Positions 18,448 through 39,619 of a stretch of 64,000 bases of DNA are shown here, one piece after another. A program made the position numbers and the translations under genes. The notes below the pieces were generated by a model. That model made no database searches and was not told the DNA's origin. It was given only the letters and a program-made list of their open reading frames with translations. The stretch spans positions 4,152,627-4,216,626 of the forward strand of contig OY782497.1 in assembly GCA_963677705.1 (NCBI GenBank), given 5' to 3'. Position 1 is the first letter of the stretch. Each line of letters starts with the position of its first letter. Source of the DNA: Myxococcota bacterium. GTDB lineage: Bacteria > Myxococcota_A > SURF-8 > G963677705.

Positions 18448-18938
18448 CGCTCCTCTCTGCCGGGTAGAATGTCCGGCATGGTCTGACGCATGGCCTCAAA
18501 CAATACGATGGCCACGGAATTGGATAGGTTGTAGCTGCGCACCTTCCCTAGAATGGGAATGTTGATCGTCCGCTCGGCGTGGGCCTCCAGGATGGCTTCA
18601 TCCAGCCCCACGGTTTCCTTACCGAAGATCAGAAAGTCATCGGGTTGGTAGGCCACCGAGCTATACACGCGGTGCGCTTTCTTCGTCGCGAACCATCCCC
18701 GGTTGTGGGCTTCCGGATAGGCCTTCCAGAAGTCTTCCAGGCTTTCATGAACCACCAGGGTCAAATGGGGCCAGTAGTCCAATCCGGCACGACGCATATA
18801 GCGGTCATCCAAGCTGAAACCAAGGGGTTTGACCAGATGCAGTTCGGCATCAGCCCCTACACACAAACGACCGATATTTCCCGTATTGGGAGGTATTTCC
18901 GGTTCGATCAATACAACACGAAACATCCGGCACCACAC
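18444..18938 (-). CDS. trmL: tRNA (cytidine/uridine-2'-O)-methyltransferase, SpoU/TrmL family
   Basis: VVLIEPEIPPNTGNIGRLC ... SYNLSNSVAIVLFEA SPOUT motifs. ATGA overlap with the trpS start. The true start may be the M at 18926. Confidence 0.75.
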   Translation of the reverse strand: MWCRMFRVVLIEPEIPPNTGNIGRLCVGADAELHLVKPLGFSLDDRYMRRAGLDYWPHLTLVVHESLEDFWKAYPEAHNRGWFATKKAHRVYSSVAYQPDDFLIFGKETVGLDEAILEAHAERTINIPILGKVRSYNLSNSVAIVLFEAMRQTMPDILPGREER

Positions 18939-19116
18939 TTTTTTCTAGGGAACCACACAGAACGGACCCTGGCTTTCGACGAAGGAACCATCCCCCTTCT
19001 AGCTGCCGGAATCCGAACCTTGGCGGTATAGCACCGACGGGCGGTAAACACAAGAAATCCACGGCGGCAACCATCGACAAAGGTGCCGTTTTCTCTCTCT
19101 TGCACTCTGGCCCGGC

Positions 19117-19782
19117 TTAAAATTCGTGGGGCTTCATCGGTAAGACATACCAGAGCATGGCAAAGAAATGGCTGATGCTTCCTCCCAGCACGAAAAGATG
19201 CCAGATGGCATGGCCGTAGGGAAGCTTCTTCCAGAGGTAGAACACAACTCCCAGGCAATAGCACAAGCCGCCGATGGCGATCCAAACCAGGCCGCCTGTG
19301 GGGATGGCCTCGAACATCGGCTTGGCGGCAATCGTCACAAGAAAACCCATGCCCACATAGACAAACACACTGACCAGACGGTACTTGTCAATGAACAGTG
19401 CTTTGAAGACAATTCCGGCGATGGCCAGGCCCCAGATCACGCCGAAGAGGCTCCATCCCCACGGGCCACGCAGGCTGACCAGGGTGAAAGGCGTGTAGGT
19501 TCCGGCGATGAGCAGAAAGATGGCCGAGTGGTCGAAGATGTTGAACAGGCGCTTCAAGCGCATGGACTGAAAACTGTGGTAGAGGGTGCTGGCCAGGTAC
19601 AACAGAATCAGGGTTGTCCCGTAAATGCTGAAGCTGACCACGCGCCAGGCATCCCCATACAAACCGGCCAGAGTAACCAGAATCGACAAGGCGGCGACAC
19701 TCAGCCCCGCACCGATACCATGAGTAACACTGTTGGCGATTTCTTCACCGAGGCTCTGCCCGGAATAAGGATGTTTTTCCAT
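19117..19782 (-). CDS. Hemolysin III / PAQR-family membrane protein
   Basis: Seven TM helices and a HxxxH-type motif (EIANSVTHGIGAG). Start trimmed to MEKHPY at 19782. Confidence 0.75.
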   Translation of the reverse strand: MEKHPYSGQSLGEEIANSVTHGIGAGLSVAALSILVTLAGLYGDAWRVVSFSIYGTTLILLYLASTLYHSFQSMRLKRLFNIFDHSAIFLLIAGTYTPFTLVSLRGPWGWSLFGVIWGLAIAGIVFKALFIDKYRLVSVFVYVGMGFLVTIAAKPMFEAIPTGGLVWIAIGGLCYCLGVVFYLWKKLPYGHAIWHLFVLGGSISHFFAMLWYVLPMKPHEF

Positions 19783-19839
19783 CAGATTTCTCCACAGCAA
19801 CAGACTAGACGCAACATTAACCGAAGGGTGGACCAACCA

Positions 19840-20503
19840 ACATCAAACACACCTGCCGTCTTCTATTTTCAGACAAGGATTCAGGCAGGTTGTGGAAAAC
19901 GTCAGAAAGTATTTCAAGGATATGTCCAATGACAATCCCAGATTCATGTTCATAGCTTCTCGTTGAATTGTCCACGACCCGACATCCCCCCAAGGCAGTG
20001 GTGCCCAGCGACCCTTACGAACCGCTTGGCTGAGGCTAGGTTGTAGCAAATTCGCCCAAGAAATCCAGCAAAGATCATCAACGAAATCGAAAAAGACTCC
20101 CTTTCACGCTATTTTTTCCCGCCGTGCAAGGATTCGTCTACCTTTTGTTCGGCGACTGAACAGAAAACAGAAGGTTCTTCAGCGACAATGTTATCATATA
20201 TAATTCTGGTATCCTTTGGTCCTGTAGAGGATATTCATCCAGTTATTCCAGGTTCCTAGCGAACACATCACAGGTTCTAAACGCTCAATTCCATAAGACA
20301 TTCCCTTTCTGATACACCATAAAAGGGCTTTCGCCGACCACTAGATAAACGGAAAAACAAAGCGTCATGGTAAGGAAGAAAAAAGCTAGGATATGATATG
20401 CTTCTTGTGTTATAGCATATCCCACCTGTGCTGCTTTGATTCACAATCCGGGTACTCCGGAACTCAGTGTATTGTTGGATGTATTGCCTGAAAAGGAAGG
20501 GTC
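19840..20503. promoter_or_regulatory. 660-bp AT-rich non-coding region upstream of the Rrf2 regulator; contains the palindrome ggatatgatat-N12-atagcatatcc (20389-20422)
   Basis: The GC content falls sharply relative to its surroundings. A 10/11 inverted repeat lies about 80 bp upstream of the Rrf2 start codon, and a GGAAGGG RBS precedes the ATG. Confidence 0.35.
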
Positions 20504-32626: not shown

Positions 32627-33099
32627 AGCCATAGGGCTAGACAGCGGATATGTACCGCAGCGAGGAAAGACGCGGTGTTCTTCGCATAACGCGTTGCAAC
32701 ACCACGCCAACGTTTCAGCTTTTCAAAGGCATTTTCAACCAGATGGCGTTCACGGTACAAGTCTTTGTCGTAGTTACGTTGAACCGTTCGATTCTTCTTT
32801 GGAGGAATCACCGGACACGTATCGTTTTTCTCGCATAGGCCAATGATGCTATTTGTATCATAACCACGATCAGCCAGTAAATTAGAGGCTGGTAGCCCTT
32901 CAATCAGATTTTCAGCCTCTTTGCAGTCAGCTTGGGTACCTTTTGCAAGAAGGACTCGGATCGGAAACCCATGCGCATCCACGGCCAGGTGTACCTTGGA
33001 ATTGAGCCCCCTTTTGTTTGACCCGCGTCCTGCGTTCCGCCTCGGGCACCCGTGGCATCGTGGTGGACTTTGACATGCGTGGCGTCGATCATCAGCCAT
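32614..33099 (-). CDS. IS5-family transposase OrfB (DDE catalytic part)
   Basis: LADRGYDTNSIIGLCEKNDTCPVIPPKKNR...HLVENAFEKLKRWRGVATRYAK. Confidence 0.7.
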   Translation of the reverse strand: MADDRRHACQSPPRCHGCPRRNAGRGSNKRGLNSKVHLAVDAHGFPIRVLLAKGTQADCKEAENLIEGLPASNLLADRGYDTNSIIGLCEKNDTCPVIPPKKNRTVQRNYDKDLYRERHLVENAFEKLKRWRGVATRYAKNTASFLAAVHIRCLALWLHIS

Positions 33100-33377
33100 T
33101 CGTAGTCGGGATCATCAATCAAAATATCCAGTAAATTCTCCCAGATGCCTTTATCTCCCCAACGAATAAACCGGCGATGGGTATTGTTCCAACTGCCATA
33201 ATCGGGCGGTAGGTCGCGCCAATGTGCACCGGTTCGCAAGATCCAAAACACACCATTAATGAATCGTCGATTGTCTCTGGCAATCCCGCCCCATTGGCCT
33301 TTCTTCCCCGGTAAATGTGGCTCCAAGAGTTCCCAAGCGTGGTCGGAAATATCATGACGGTGATAAGTGGCATCCAT
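32904..33377 (-). CDS. IS5-family transposase OrfA (HTH/N-terminal part)
   Basis: MDATYHRHDISDHAWELLEPHLPGKKGQWGGIARDNRRFINGVFWILRTGAHWRDLP is the canonical IS5/IS427 OrfA. Confidence 0.7.
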   Translation of the reverse strand: MDATYHRHDISDHAWELLEPHLPGKKGQWGGIARDNRRFINGVFWILRTGAHWRDLPPDYGSWNNTHRRFIRWGDKGIWENLLDILIDDPDYEWLMIDATHVKVHHDATGARGGTQDAGQTKGGSIPRYTWPWMRMGFRSESFLQKVPKLTAKRLKI

Positions 33378-33453
33378 TGTATTCCTCTGAATAGTTTCTA
33401 TTTAAAGGAATGTAGACCAGCAGAGTCGTCTTGTCCAGGAAAATCTATAACTC

Positions 33454-33828
33454 ATGTCGACACCTCCTACGGAGAATAACATCAACAAGCTGTTCTATGA
33501 TGTCTGGGAAGACTGGATTGTCTATGGGGATTATGATCCTGAACGCAGTCCGGATACCCGTTCTACCTGTGGTTATAACAACCAAGCCGCCGCAGAGATT
33601 ATCCTTCGTTACCTACCTACGGGCGAGGAATGGAACCTGAGTAAGAAAGCTGGAGAACAACTTGATGCCCGAATGTGGGGGCCTTTGGTGGTCTGGGCCG
33701 ATTACCCCTGGAAAGAATACGACGATGGAAGTAGCTACATCAGCCCGATTCAAGATGTCAACGGTATTGATCTGTGTATGCACCCGGAGTTGAAAGACAG
33801 ATTCCCGGAGTGCGCCGGGAGAAAGTGA
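33454..33828 (+). CDS. Hypothetical small protein between the two IS elements
   Basis: 124-aa ORF of moderate composition. No motif. Confidence 0.3.
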   Translation: MSTPPTENNINKLFYDVWEDWIVYGDYDPERSPDTRSTCGYNNQAAAEIILRYLPTGEEWNLSKKAGEQLDARMWGPLVVWADYPWKEYDDGSSYISPIQDVNGIDLCMHPELKDRFPECAGRK

Positions 33829-33829
33829 A

Positions 33830-33990
33830 GGCAGGTCGCTGGAGAATCGCCCTCACCCTGCTTCGCTGCGCTCGCTTCCCTCTCCCGGAGGGCGAGGGAC
33901 AATTCACCTCTCCCTCTCAGGAGAGGTCGGAAACCAAGGGTTTCCGGGTGAGGGAAATTCTCCAGCGACCTGACTCCCTTGCCCGACCTT
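33830..33990. repeat. Palindromic repeat module (cggaaaccaagggtttccgggtgaggg; ctctccctctcaggagagg)
   Basis: Shared with 36895-36935 and 3370-3430. Confidence 0.4.
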
Positions 33991-34105
33991 GTATTATACC
34001 TTCCAGTGCGTTTGTCTGTATAATCGAGCGACAATAGGAGCCCGCGAGACCCTCAAAAATCTCGCGGGCGGTGGACGGCGAGATCGTCCCGACCTTGGGT
34101 CGTAA

Positions 34106-35200
<1,095 letters not shown>

Positions 35201-35299
35201 GTTGCTTACGCCGACGCCCACCGACCTGCCGAACTCTATCGTGTCCAGCATTTTCAGGCCCACGGCGGGGCGGTCACCTATGCCGCGCATCAGGGTGTT

Positions 35300-36185
35300 T
35301 TTCAACACCCTGTCAGCCCCTTCGGCTGCTGGCGAATTTACAGGCAGTTATTGGTATAGCTGTAACTCTGACAAGAGTCCGGCGTGCCGTCGCAGTCATC
35401 ATCATAGCTAGAAGTCAACCGGTTGCCGTCTTCGTCATAGGTATAGCTGTGACAAGAGTCCGGCGTGCCGTCGCAGTCTGAATCATTACGATGGCTCAAC
35501 TCATTGCCGTTTGCGTCATAGGTGCGGCTGTAACAACCGTAGTCTGCCGTGCCGTCGCAGTTATAAAGCTCAGCTCATTGCCGTTTGCGTCATAGGTATA
35601 GCTGTAACAACCACGATCCGGCGTGCCGTCGCAGTATGAATCTTCGCTAGAGCTCAACCGGTTGCCGTTTGCGTCATAGGTGGAGGTGCGACAATAGTCC
35701 GGCGTACCGTCGCAGTCATCATCTTCACGATTGCTCAACTCATTGCCGTTTGCGTCATAGGTGTAGTTGTGACAAGAGTCCGGCGTGCCGTCGCAGTCTG
35801 AATCATTACGATGGCTCAACACATTGCCGTTTTCGTCATAGGTATAGCTGTTGTAACAAGTATCCGGCGTTCCGTCGCAGTCTTCATCCCGGCTATAGCT
35901 CCTCTTATTGCCGTCTTCGTCATAGGTATAGCTGTAACAATCGGCGTCCGGCGTACCGTCGCAGTCATCATCCCGGCTGTAGCTCAACTTATTGCCGTCT
36001 TCGTCATAGGTGTAGCTATAACAACCCTCGTCCGGCGTACCGTCGCAATCATCATCTTCACGATAGCTCAACTCATTGCCGTCTTCGTCATGGGTGCGGC
36101 TGGTACAACCATGATCCGGCGTGCCGTCACAGAGCAGATCATAATAATAAACCTCAATATAACAGCCGTCGGTGGTGTCATCATC
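35300..36185 (-). repeat. About 81-bp coding tandem repeat array (YD/Rhs-like unit C-DGTPD-xxCYSYTYDxxGNxLSxxxDDD), 10 or more copies, extending past the annotated stop
   Basis: The repeat continues from 36185 down to about 35335, although the ORF stops at 35496. Confidence 0.65.
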
Positions 36186-36539
36186 ATCATCGTCATCTGC
36201 TGTGTCGCCGTCGGTAGTGTCATCATCATCGTCGCTGGAGGTGTCTCCGTCTGCGCTGGCTTCGCCTTCGCTGTTGCAAACACCGTCGGTGCAACTGTAA
36301 CTCACACCGTCGGGAGCTTCTCCGCAGCGGCTTTCCGTTTCACAATCCGCCGCCGTTTCGCAACTGTCTCCTTGCTTGTTTCCTTCATAGCAATGGTGAA
36401 TCTTCTGAGGCAGGTAATCTTCTTGCTCTGCTTGGTCAAAATCGCCGTCAGCCTGAATCAAGACTAGCGAACCGGAGTCGCCACAGGCAACAAAAACCAA
36501 CATAGATAGCAAAATAAAACTATTCATGATATAATTCAC
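35496..36539 (-). CDS. YD-repeat lipoprotein with poly-Asp linker and N-terminal Cys-rich module; probably frameshifted (repeats continue in another frame to about 35335)
   Basis: Lipobox LVFVAC. Module IHHCYEGNKQGDSCETAADCETESRCGEAPDGVSYSCTDGVC, paralogous to the 31436 gene. The alternative frame after about 35500 translates to further CDGTPD..YTYDxDGN repeats ending ...SYSYTNNCL. Confidence 0.6.
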   Translation of the reverse strand: MNYIMNSFILLSMLVFVACGDSGSLVLIQADGDFDQAEQEDYLPQKIHHCYEGNKQGDSCETAADCETESRCGEAPDGVSYSCTDGVCNSEGEASADGDTSSDDDDDTTDGDTADDDDDDDTTDGCYIEVYYYDLLCDGTPDHGCTSRTHDEDGNELSYREDDDCDGTPDEGCYSYTYDEDGNKLSYSRDDDCDGTPDADCYSYTYDEDGNKRSYSRDEDCDGTPDTCYNSYTYDENGNVLSHRNDSDCDGTPDSCHNYTYDANGNELSNREDDDCDGTPDYCRTSTYDANGNRLSSSEDSYCDGTPDRGCYSYTYDANGNELSFITATARQTTVVTAAPMTQTAMS

Positions 36540-36839
36540 AGGAACCTCCTATCTGTTTCCGGCTTTTGTATGCTTCGTTCCTTAGTTTGAGCGGCGGGCG
36601 TGAGGATGTCAAGGAAATTTCGTTGGCTTGCCTTTCTTTGCCCGACACTCTTCCCCTCCTTGGTGTGGTGGACATGCAGGGTAGAATGCCTTGATGAAAA
36701 ACTTGAGACGGCTATCTATCGAAGGGGATGGACGGTTGGGGTAGCAATGACAACCGGCATTTGTGGGATCGCCTCAACGATGAATGGTTCAATCCGACTT
36801 TCGGGAAAGTTTGAAGATACACGCCCGTCAACGATGGAT

Positions 36840-36960
36840 AACGGTTCGCAAGAAACCCATGTCGGGCAAGGAATTTGCCCGACCAAGCGGGTAGAATCGC
36901 CCTCACCCGAAAACCAAGGGTTTCCGGGTGAGGGGCTTGGGATGACACCCGGCAAGAAAT
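36840..36960. repeat. Cluster of palindromic repeats (gtcgggcaaggaatttgcccgac; cccgaaaaccaagggtttccgggtgagggg)
   Basis: The gtcgggcaaNNNNNttgcccgac hairpin recurs at 39716-39738 and 40636-40658. Confidence 0.45.
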
Positions 36961-37240
36961 TTGCCCAGTTTCTTGGGCCATCTTTCCTGATGGACCTTTT
37001 TCTGAAAATGTGTTAAATAAGTAGGTATTGGGAGTATTTCCAAGTCTATGATTTTATACGTTCTATTCAGTGGAAGAAACTCCTGATAATCTGTCGGGTC
37101 GGGGAAAGGCTGAGGTGCGGTCGGCGGATCGCACCTGGGGTTGAACGGACAAGTTCCTGAAACATCGAAGGGTTCCTGAGAAGAAAAGAGTGGATTTAGG
37201 TAGATAAAAGATTGACAATATAACTCCAATTAAGTAAAAT

Positions 37241-39619
37241 TTGATTAAATTTAGGAGAGCAAAACTCGTTGTCCTTCGGAGGCGCTCAATGGAGAAGCCA
37301 ACATCTACCTCGTATTTTGATCCGCTGCTGGAGCGTGGCAAGCAGTTGTCCGCCCTGGTCAATGATACTCGCGGCCTGCAAAGCGCCGGTCCGGCGGGAC
37401 GGTTTTTCTTTTCCGCCCTCTTGGCCGGTCTGGGGCTGTTTCTCTGCGAGCAGCTTCTGGTGCTGCTTTCGGGAAGCCGTCCCTTCGTCTCCGGAGCCCA
37501 GGCGGTGCGCTTTGCCTTCTTTTCCGCCTCGCTGCTTGGCGTGTGGCTTCTGCCTTACGCCTTCTTTGGTGGAACCCTCTTCGGCCTGGTGCAGGAACAC
37601 CTGGACCCCTTCACCCGGTTGTGGGATTGGTTTCGTATCAGCCGCCTGGATGCCCGTGCGGATCGTCGTCACGCGGCAAGTCTTGTCGCCTTCATCAGCG
37701 CCTTCGGCTTTCTGCTGGCCAGCCAGTTTCTGGTCAACGTCTATCTGAGTAGCAACTACAACGCCAAGGCTTTGGCCGGAATCGTCTTTACCCTCGGCCT
37801 GCTCTTTCTGCTGGGCTTGTCCATCGTTCTGTATGCCAGCCTAAACCATGTGCTTCGCCGTTGGTTCATCAAGCTCCCCGATGTCTTTGACGGCGGCTTG
37901 ACGCTGTTGATTCTGCTCGTGGTGGGGGGCGTGGCTCTGTTGGGAGCCGGTGTGATGGTCCGCCGCAGTTGGGCCACGCTGGAGTTGCTGAATCTCAAGC
38001 CCCTGATGGTCGTCGGTGTTTTCCTGGTGCTGCAAGCCATCGGCTTGCGCCTGCTTCATCATCCCTTGCTGGATGACTTCACCCGTTATGTGACGCGCCC
38101 CATTCACCGGGTGAGCCTGGCCGCCTCCTGGGTCTTGCTGCTTGCCTTGACCATCTACAACTTCAATCAGGACCCGCATTCCGCCTTTGTGATGCGCCAC
38201 TACGCGCCCTTGTCTCAACTGGCCGTGCGTGCCGTGCAAACCCTGGGGGATCGTGACGGCGACGGCTATGCCTCCATTCTGCTGGGTGGGGATTGCAACG
38301 ACCGAAACCCCGGTATCAACCCCACCGCCAGGGATATTCCCGGTAACGGTGTGGACGAAGACTGCCTCGCCGGAGATGCCGCCATTCCCGCCGCCAAACG
38401 CTACGACTGGTTGGACGAGGAAACCCAACTGCGTCTGGCCAGCCTGCGCAGCGAATGGAACATTCTCCTGATCACCATCGACGCCCTGCGCGCCGACCAT
38501 ACCGGTTTCGGTGGCTACGATCGCCCCACCACGCCGGAGTTGGACCAGCTCGCCGAGGAATCCGTGGTGTTCGAGCGGGCCTATACCCAGGCTCCCAACA
38601 CGCCCCAGGCCATTCCGGCCTTGATGAGTGGCCGCTATCCCTCCGAGATCGACTGGAGCCATTACCACAACTTCCCCCGCGTGAAGGACGACACCCCGCT
38701 GCTGCATGAACTCTTCCAGAAGGAATTGGGCTATCAGTTCACCGGCGTATTTGGCTATTGGTATTTTGAAAACCGCAATCTGGAACGGGGTGCGAAAACC
38801 TGGGACAACCGTGTCTGGGACCGGAACGCCCACCCGGAAAGCCACGTCACGGCCAACAAAATTACGGACAACGCCCTGGAACACCTTCATGCTCTGGGCA
38901 ACGATCCAAGCAACCCGCAGTTCTTCTGGCTGCACTATTTCGATCCCCATTTCCTCTACAACCGGCACAAGGGGATTCGCAACTTCGGGGAACGACCGAT
39001 GGATCGTTACGACCATGAAATCCTCGGCACCGACCGTGAGGTGGGACGTTTTCTGCGTGAGTTCCGCCAGACGAAGCTTTGGGACCATACAGTGGTGGTG
39101 ATTACCGCCGACCACGGTGAGGAATTCGGCGAACATGGCGGGCGTTTCCACGGAGCGCACCTGTATGAAGAAGTGGCTCACGTTCCTTTGATGATCCGCA
39201 TTCCCGGCGTGACGCCGCGCCGTGTTTCCAAGCCGGTTTCCAGTGTGGATCTCGCCTCGACCCTGGGGCAACTCTGCGGGCTGGCACCCCACGCCGACCC
39301 GACGCAGGGGAAATCCCTGCTGCCTCTGGCCTTGAATGTGGAAGGCTACGATCACGGCCCGGTGTTCAGTGAAAAACTCAAGCTTCCCGCCTTCCCTTAC
39401 ACGCTGCGGACCTTCATTGACGACAACTGGAAGCTGGTGGACCGCCCCGACGAGATGCGCTTTGAACTGTACAACCTGGATGTCGATCCGATGGAACAGG
39501 ATGATCTTTCCGACCGTCTTCCCGAACGATTGGCACGGATGAAAAAGCAGTATGCCGACTGGAAAGCCGAACACCTCACCGGCAAGGCCGATTGGTATAA
39601 ACTGGCCGCCGGGATGTAG
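37241..39619 (+). CDS. Membrane-anchored sulfatase-fold (alkaline-phosphatase superfamily) hydrolase/transferase, with Thr/Asn in place of the FGly-forming Cys
   Basis: N-terminal multi-TM region. Catalytic domain ILLITIDALRADH...APNTPQAIPALMSGRYP...DHGEEFGEHG. The alternative start MEKPTS at 37289 is plausible. Confidence 0.7.
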   Translation: MIKFRRAKLVVLRRRSMEKPTSTSYFDPLLERGKQLSALVNDTRGLQSAGPAGRFFFSALLAGLGLFLCEQLLVLLSGSRPFVSGAQAVRFAFFSASLLGVWLLPYAFFGGTLFGLVQEHLDPFTRLWDWFRISRLDARADRRHAASLVAFISAFGFLLASQFLVNVYLSSNYNAKALAGIVFTLGLLFLLGLSIVLYASLNHVLRRWFIKLPDVFDGGLTLLILLVVGGVALLGAGVMVRRSWATLELLNLKPLMVVGVFLVLQAIGLRLLHHPLLDDFTRYVTRPIHRVSLAASWVLLLALTIYNFNQDPHSAFVMRHYAPLSQLAVRAVQTLGDRDGDGYASILLGGDCNDRNPGINPTARDIPGNGVDEDCLAGDAAIPAAKRYDWLDEETQLRLASLRSEWNILLITIDALRADHTGFGGYDRPTTPELDQLAEESVVFERAYTQAPNTPQAIPALMSGRYPSEIDWSHYHNFPRVKDDTPLLHELFQKELGYQFTGVFGYWYFENRNLERGAKTWDNRVWDRNAHPESHVTANKITDNALEHLHALGNDPSNPQFFWLHYFDPHFLYNRHKGIRNFGERPMDRYDHEILGTDREVGRFLREFRQTKLWDHTVVVITADHGEEFGEHGGRFHGAHLYEEVAHVPLMIRIPGVTPRRVSKPVSSVDLASTLGQLCGLAPHADPTQGKSLLPLALNVEGYDHGPVFSEKLKLPAFPYTLRTFIDDNWKLVDRPDEMRFELYNLDVDPMEQDDLSDRLPERLARMKKQYADWKAEHLTGKADWYKLAAGM

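Follow-up and report, generated by a model that had tools for sequence, protein, structure and literature searches.

A YD-type repeat lipoprotein gene with putative calcium loops and a probably inherited frameshift in a Myxococcota bacterium

We analysed a 64,000-nucleotide stretch of contig OY782497.1 from a Myxococcota bacterium (assembly GCA_963677705.1, positions 4,152,627 to 4,216,626), hereafter the window, and focus on one gene, a lipoprotein gene in which an array of YD-type repeats is interrupted by a shift of reading frame. Positions are those of the window, and features are on the minus strand unless stated otherwise. The reading that we favour, and consider fairly probable when all its parts are taken jointly, is that the gene encodes a YD lipoprotein with calcium-type loops stapled by disulfides, that a real 10-nucleotide (nt) lesion disrupts it, and that the resulting truncated allele is probably decaying. 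The YD/Rhs-type fold and family are well supported. A first inspection of the letters and translations, made without database searches (the sequence-only reading), had drawn attention to the locus.

The tandem array was located at 35338-36539 by Tandem Repeats Finder (TRF), with a period of 84, 8.9 copies, 78% matches and a score of 605. An 18-mer, TGYGAYGGNACNSCNGAY, which codes for CDGT(P/A)D, occurs 10 times in the window, always within 35377-36131, compared with 0.00 occurrences in shuffled windows. The called open reading frame (ORF; 35496-36539) encodes 347 amino acids from a GTG start, and a Shine-Dalgarno sequence, AGGAGG, can be read directly at 36545-36550, 5 nt upstream of the GTG. 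The translation begins with a signal peptide ending in a lipobox and the invariant cysteine (36483-36539; MNYIMNSFILLSMLVFVA-C19-GDS, with LVFVA-C19 as the lipobox), an assignment made purely by match to a PROSITE-type pattern; the n-region of the signal peptide has no basic residue. Next comes the mature N-terminal region (36168-36482), which contains a six-cysteine segment (residues 50-88) and an acidic poly-Asp/Thr tether (95-124) and has no Pfam or NCBIfam match. An N-terminal cap strand, C125-YIEVYYYDLL (36132-36167), carries an extra cap cysteine and is the first strand of the structural model (E127-133). A promoter scan returned no sigma-70-like site for the gene. Two plus-strand ORFs (35669-36217 and 35811-36467) were rejected as antisense shadows of the repeat.

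Measured from the TGC of each CDG to the next, the unit lengths are 84, 84, 84, 84, 81, 81, 74, 84 and 81 nt, followed by an 18-codon half unit, giving ten units in all. Units 1-6 are in frame (35634-36131), and each joins a CDGTPDx(1-2)C loop to a YxYDxxGN beta-hairpin; the consensus is CDGTPDx(1-2)C-YSYTYD-(E/A)(D/N)GN-xLSxxxDDD. The sequence-only reading had described eight or more near-identical 27-residue units. The tandem array is confirmed by TRF, and the near-identity is not, as the units have 27-28 residues and share 56-86% pairwise identity (median 67%). It was right that the period departs from that of classical YD arrays, which is about 21 residues (in TIGR01643, 42 positions cover two repeats). 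What lengthens the period is the turn between hairpins, which is enlarged to a DxDxDGxxD loop with a pair of cysteines.

This loop, D-x-D-C-D-G-T-P-D-x(1-2)-C, accompanies the YD-repeat core YxYDxxGNxLS and spans 8-9 residues. The pattern [DN]x[DN]xDGxx[DE], that is, D-x-[DN]-x-D-G with a later acidic ligand, is matched by seven of the ten loops, the acidic residue standing at loop position 9. Dx[DN]xDG is a calcium ligand set established in at least 12 families (PMC3123361). Across the loops of homologues, cysteines at position 4 and at position 11-12 are both present in 188, both absent in 1,097 and found singly in 56. Because the two cysteines come and go together, their co-occurrence is the signature of a probable disulfide within the unit, in agreement with the earlier description of CDGTPD as a disulfide-type motif. 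We infer that the loops are putative calcium sites, each closed by a local disulfide.

For hidden Markov model (HMM) searches we joined the two frames at the shift into a 400-residue reconstruction. PF05593 (RHS_repeat) matched it in six stretches (E 2.1e-8; 34.8 bits against a cut-off of 22), the best stretch being the one shortened unit of 25 residues, and the NCBIfam model TIGR01643 (YD_repeat_2x) scored 17.0 bits against a cut-off of 15.8. The Pfam scan at E<=10 gave nothing beyond RHS_repeat and one noise hit, and a phmmer search of all PDB sequences reached a best E of 0.19. We take the locus to be a genuine gene, with a product predicted to be exported and lipid-anchored, given the Shine-Dalgarno sequence, the GTG start, the lipobox, HMM scores past curated cut-offs and many homologues.

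An AlphaFold2 run with 21 Cys-type homologues (those with the loop cysteines) gave a predicted local distance difference test (pLDDT) score >90 over the array and <50 over residues 20-113. The model of the array alone has a mean pLDDT of 93.8, a predicted template modelling score (pTM) of 0.77 and 20 strands, each unit supplying one hairpin; in this predicted model the hairpins form a continuous antiparallel sheet. The first rank of Foldseek matches in the PDB (E 1e-10 to 1e-7; best TM-score normalised to the query, TMq, 0.45-0.51; root-mean-square deviation, rmsd, 7-10 Å) comprised Rhs cores belonging to type VI secretion systems (T6SS; 8qjd, 8h8b, 7q97, 8cp6), BC components of Tc toxins (4igl, 5kis, 4o9x), teneurins, a teneurin-like protein (9ifo) and mosquito SGS1. 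On this prediction the array folds into a curved strip, a single-layer beta-sheet corresponding to about one turn of a Rhs/teneurin-type YD shell, and these matches agree with the YD/Rhs-type repeat lipoprotein first proposed from the letters. It would form a calcium- and disulfide-stabilised extracytoplasmic surface for binding or scaffolding.

RHS_repeat matches and a list of structural relatives headed by T6SS Rhs effectors and Tc toxins would also suit a small Rhs-type polymorphic toxin or toxin-cocoon protein. However, the array has ~275 residues and 20 strands, whereas the shells have roughly 1,000 residues; the matched solved chains run to ~660-2,100 residues, and the TM-score normalised to these shells (TMt) is <=0.23. 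A regular-expression search found no P....DP.G[LWF] core-end motif, Pfam and NCBIfam scans found no C-terminal toxin domain, and the reconstructed protein ends 10 residues past the last loop. It has no PAAR or VgrG domain and no T6SS neighbours, and carries a lipoprotein signal instead. No toxin/immunity pair or T6SS dependence is present in the 64-kb window, and a delivery context (PAAR, VgrG, T6SS, TcA/TcB partners or an immunity gene) is absent from the neighbours in the window and from five homologue loci. We consider a toxin extremely improbable.

The frame of the array is broken in unit 7 (35560-35633). After its ...GNELS, only 8 nt (TTTATAAC, 35567-35560) precede the next TGC, where the other units have 18 nt coding for xRxDDD, a net change of -10 nt. 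Unit alignment and comparison of the reading frames place the move to the -1 frame at about 35567. Frame 0 then gives a tail of 23 out-of-frame codons, FITATARQTTVVTAAPMTQTAMS, up to the first stop in the shifted reading, a TGA at 35496-35498, which closes the 347-residue ORF. The -1 frame is open for 231 nt and reads LYN-CDGTADYGCYSRTYDANGNELSHRNDSD-CDGTPDSCHSYTYDEDGNRLTSSYDDD-CDGTPDSCQSYSYTNNCL-TAA (stop at 35338-35340). This stranded 3' part (35338-35559) holds units 8 and 9 (84 and 81 nt) and a half-unit cap ending in ...CQSYSYTNNCL. The sequence-only reading had correctly recognised that the gene is frameshifted within the array and that the array goes on in another frame to ...SYSYTNNCL; it counted three further full units, where we find two and the cap. 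It had also attributed the shift to a 1-nt indel in a T-run near 35500. We place the lesion in the 74-nt unit, ~70 nt upstream, and the site at 35496-35498 is merely the first out-of-frame stop.

The stranded end is typical of the family. Intact Cys-type homologues stop a few residues past the last loop and one strand, with ends that resemble that of the -1 frame (P0019, ...CQFYDHLCF; P0048, ...CFVYSYRCL; P0038, ...CDGTPDSCSAAIY). Such a cap at the end of a fully open -1 frame, together with the difficulty of assembling 81-84-nt tandem repeats, could speak for an assembly or consensus error hiding an intact 400-residue array. A mis-join, however, would yield whole-unit lengths rather than a novel 8-nt linker, and unit alignment shows that the junction is not a chimera of other units. 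A homopolymer error was rejected, as the only T-run at the shift site is TTT (35565-35567).

The same lesion occurs on a second contig, ena:ERZ21831104:ctg97512l (4.08 Mb; locus L001), which we retrieved through the neighbouring sigma-54 protein and which matches the window over 15.4 kb at 99.7% identity, with 36 mismatches. Its orthologue (18749-19876) encodes 375 amino acids, is given the same start by the gene caller and ends in the same out-of-frame tail. The L001 array has three additional units at its front and lacks units 5 and 6 of the window, so that it counts 11 units and the window 10. The 74-nt unit and everything 3' of it in the array are identical in the two contigs, and so is a 708-nt stretch that takes in the 5' end and the sequence upstream of it. 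Two haplotypes that differ by 36 mismatches in 15 kb, an insertion sequence (IS)-flanked 2.6-kb segment and five array units therefore carry one and the same lesion with a non-chimeric linker, and for this reason an assembly slip, which had been raised as a possibility, is very unlikely. The 10 nt (net) missing from the linker of unit 7 most likely reflect a genuine truncation that has been inherited. Conceivably the loss arose as an in-frame loss of 9 nt plus a change from TTTT to TTT.

Could the ribosome repair the frame? The downstream frame is exactly -1 and is open from just before the site, the last -1-frame TGA lying within GGCAATGAGCTG, as a programmed -1 frameshift producing the full-length protein would need. 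From that TGA to the 0-frame stop, though, there is no X XXY YYZ heptamer (the junction reads C TTT ATA), and no other family member that we examined needs a frameshift. We give programmed frameshifting next to no credence. Phase variation, another possibility named at first, is likewise unsupported: the site offers neither a slippery sequence nor a hypermutable tract (only TTT), TRF found no short-period tract there, and both strains carry the same OFF sequence.

A switch might operate by recombination instead. Unit 7 alone has a length not divisible by three, whole units have been gained and lost between strains that are 99.7% identical, and 65 nt of 5' sequence, near-identical between units 7 and 8, offer a possible substrate, so unequal recombination between these units could remove the 74-nt unit, restore the frame and turn a surface protein heritably ON or OFF. 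Yet the two available alleles are identical in sequence and both OFF, the protein database, GTDB genomes and JGI metagenomes yielded no ON allele, and the short-unit tract typical of known contingency loci is absent. The JGI metagenome scans, run with the unique N-terminal domain and with the frameshift junction at a variable gap, gave no match and no further allele, and the GTDB genome scan gave only 10 distant relatives (27-39% identity) and no further allele. We see only a slight chance that the unit is such a switch.

Under the inherited truncation that we favour, translation moves to the -1 frame in unit 7 and ends 23 codons on. The product keeps seven units but not the remaining two, nor the conserved cap at the C-terminus and its cysteine. 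The array would go on changing its unit number by recombination, in an IS-rich and rearranging neighbourhood.

The importance of the lost tail is suggested by the cap cysteines. Among Cys-type homologues, counterparts of the N-cap C125 (36165-36167) and of the extra C-cap C399 (35344-35346) co-occur: 9-10 proteins have both, 11 have neither and 1-2 are exceptions (Fisher p ~3e-4, without phylogenetic correction). Capped arrays have 8 to ~15 units and always an even number of cysteines. Judged from this covariation, the cap cysteines probably pair with each other, either within a molecule or between molecules. The truncated product lacks C399 and has 21 cysteines besides the lipid-bearing one, an odd number; the truncation therefore leaves C125 without its likely partner. 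The lost tail would impair the allele, which most probably represents a young pseudogene, crippled or in decay.

Several points weigh against this interpretation, and most of them also speak for the 347-residue lipoprotein as the functional form, in which seven hairpins would be enough and the stranded 3' units would be leftovers. Start, signal peptide and Shine-Dalgarno sequence are all retained in the truncated ORF, as are seven intact units. Truncation is often tolerated by single-layer sheets, so a shortened product might still function, and the family is flexible in length (~8 to ~15 units). The lesion has been kept in two strains, and the units shared between them differ by two substitutions, both synonymous (0 non-synonymous), although so small a number falls far short of demonstrating selection. 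Against a functional short form stand the loss of the conserved half-unit cap with Cys399, the odd cysteine number and the 23 out-of-frame residues at the end. We regard it as possible but rather unlikely. Other reservations concern the remaining parts of the favoured reading. The calcium sites, disulfides and lipid anchor are all putative, being deduced only from sequence and covariation. If the two contigs stem from one sequencing project, as they may, a shared systematic artefact is conceivable. Five homologue loci showed no conserved gene neighbourhood or operon, so that function cannot be read from context. The frameshift itself is of interest mainly as a caution: the lesion is real and inherited, and it sits in a repeat array that recombines, beside an IS110 element.

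The repeat unit belongs to a much wider set of proteins. With the repeat region as query, the number of clusters (50% identity) was 3,535 at E<=1e-3, falling to 1,167 at E<=1e-10 and to 166 at E<=1e-30, and among 243 homologues that we retrieved the dominant [FYW]DxxG spacing is 27 (504 instances). The arrangement, called unusual in the sequence-only reading, is thus not peculiar to this gene but characterises a large family. Among the homologues retrieved, 133 are Cys-free (e.g., DNDGTPD...V/I), 33 are Cys-type and 3 are mixed, and ~58% of the 243 have a lipobox-like N-terminus. Other members join the array to type IX secretion system (T9SS) sorting, Ig-like, PKD, FG-GAP, cadherin-like, dockerin, S-layer or pilin-type domains, all of which are cell-surface contexts. 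The taxa named include Deltaproteobacteria-type metagenome-assembled genomes, Gammaproteobacteria, Planctomycetota, Bacillota, Gastranaerophilales and Streptomyces. Another search returned 175 homologues, most of which have a precomputed PF05593 hit. Its list contained neither the 347-residue product nor the 375-residue L001 orthologue, although the L001 gene is called in the collection, and its best match was 49% identical; a word-index search can therefore miss near-identical repeat proteins. Exact look-ups of the 347-residue product and of two proteins of the window gave no record.

To our knowledge, YD repeats have been described almost exclusively as wall-forming elements, in the toxin cocoons of Rhs and Tc toxins and in teneurins. 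We found no description of the 27-residue unit in the literature on YD repeats with calcium, lipoprotein or DxDxDG. We infer that the gene is a member of a widespread, uncharacterised YD variant that combines a 27-residue hairpin with a calcium-type loop and is stapled by disulfides in its Cys-type members. The locus points to a branch that is large, spans a broad range of taxa and is unstudied (>1,000 clusters at 50% identity), with many lipoproteins or T9SS cargo proteins and with short arrays unable to enclose anything. If confirmed, this would be a new calcium- and redox-dependent surface module, and the annotation of thousands of non-toxin "RHS repeat" proteins would be refined. A bolder proposal, which we think has little chance of being right in full, is that the calcium-loop YD hairpin, whether or not it carries the disulfide staple within the unit, is a distinct, undescribed extracellular module whose arrays of ~8-15 hairpins are closed or linked by a disulfide between N-cap and C-cap, as a one-turn "mini YD ring" or as head-to-tail assemblies, with the 74-nt unit as a frame switch, removable by recombination, that controls the cap.

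Past the array, 26 nt beyond the -1-frame TAA, lies a perfect 9-bp stem with a GAAA loop (35291-35312), which is conserved in L001. It has no T-run and was not called by the terminator scan; it may mark the 3' end of the ancestral transcript. An Rfam scan of 33000-38000 gave sub-threshold matches only. Two of these, whalefall-1 (22.8 bits) and tfoR (20.7 bits), fall at the left end of the IS110 element (33882-33995, plus strand) and may reflect a structured non-coding region of that element. IS110 elements carry bridge RNAs.

The window belongs to a 5.18-Mb contig of an uncultured bacterium whose ribosomal protein S2 shares no more than 70% identity with any other; the hits that carry a name are metagenome-assembled genomes of Deltaproteobacteria, Thermodesulfobacteriota and Acidobacteriota. 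The gene's neighbours in the window are the IS110 element, a membrane-anchored sulfatase, an Lcl_C protein, TauE, a phosphatase, an MMPL transporter and the sigma-54 protein. The IS110-family insertion sequence (33979-35165, plus strand; transposase at 34193-35146, Pfam DEDD_Tnp_IS110 and Transposase_20) lies ~170 bp downstream of the gene and is a rearrangement breakpoint between the two strains. The 3' flank in the window consists of one IS110 copy, 98 bp without counterpart in L001 (35166-35263) and the gene. In L001 (14188-18526) the order is a full IS110, a 2.6-kb segment encoding a 720-residue Cys-rich EGF-like lipoprotein, a 503-bp 5' fragment of IS110 and then the gene. This fits a scenario in which two IS copies recombined in the lineage of the window and deleted the segment between them, while the second copy in L001 suffered an internal deletion. 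Just upstream of the IS110 is a DUF4096 ORF (32904-33377), an IS5-type transposase fragment; with this fragment beside the IS110, the region at 32.9-35.3 kb is rich in mobile-element remnants.

On the other side, the divergent neighbour (37241-39619, plus strand) encodes 792 amino acids; the protein combines a sulfatase domain with a MopE-type metal-binding motif, and its N-terminus is a hydrophobic, multi-pass region. At the five homologue loci the neighbours are an alpha-amylase, BNR_2 with FG-GAP, YkuD, an amidase or uninformative. Two Cys-type homologues stand immediately upstream of secreted proteins linked to glycans: P0019 before the alpha-amylase (L012, 8301-10055), and P0012 before the BNR_2 and FG-GAP proteins (L014, 8303-12668). 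With the sulfatase beside the gene in the window, these two loci make a loose carbohydrate theme, from which the three other loci differ.

Among known systems, the closest in fold are the YD/RHS repeats of Rhs toxins, Tc B/C components and teneurins, which share the core YxYDxxG(N/R)xL and one beta-hairpin per repeat. The predicted strip superposes on shell segments of RhsP, the teneurin-like protein and YenB/TcB-TcC with TMq 0.4-0.5. Unlike these shells, the array makes about one turn and cannot close a cocoon, comes without a core-end autoprotease motif, toxin, plug or T6SS/Tc partners, and would be lipid-anchored. The putative calcium loops recall thrombospondin type 3 (TSP3) repeats and other Dx[DN]xDG loops (EF-hand-like, Excalibur), which are likewise extracellular tandem DxDxDGxxD loops with conserved cysteines. 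In TSP3 repeats, disulfides hold the calcium-wrapped loops together. PMC3123361 cites the thrombospondin structure 1ux6. Neither TSP_3 nor Excalibur had an HMM match at E<=10 in the Pfam scan. In the array, by contrast, regular beta-hairpins separate the putative calcium loops, which build no irregular calcium core, and the cysteine at motif position 4 is predicted to pair with one 7-8 residues on.

OspA is also a lipoprotein with a sheet of consecutive antiparallel hairpins and no hydrophobic core; hairpin-repeat solenoids such as choline-binding repeats are comparable. Engineered OspA single-layer sheets appear as second-tier Foldseek matches (rmsd 15-20 Å, TMq ~0.2). OspA differs from the array in having globular end domains, no repeats, no calcium loops and no disulfides, and shares no sequence relationship with it. 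The array also recalls tandem-repeat surface proteins whose repeat number varies between strains, such as the streptococcal Alp and alpha-C family. There, as here, long near-perfect DNA repeats change copy number by recombination between close strains; those arrays stay in frame, whereas here one unit is not divisible by three and the array is truncated in both strains.

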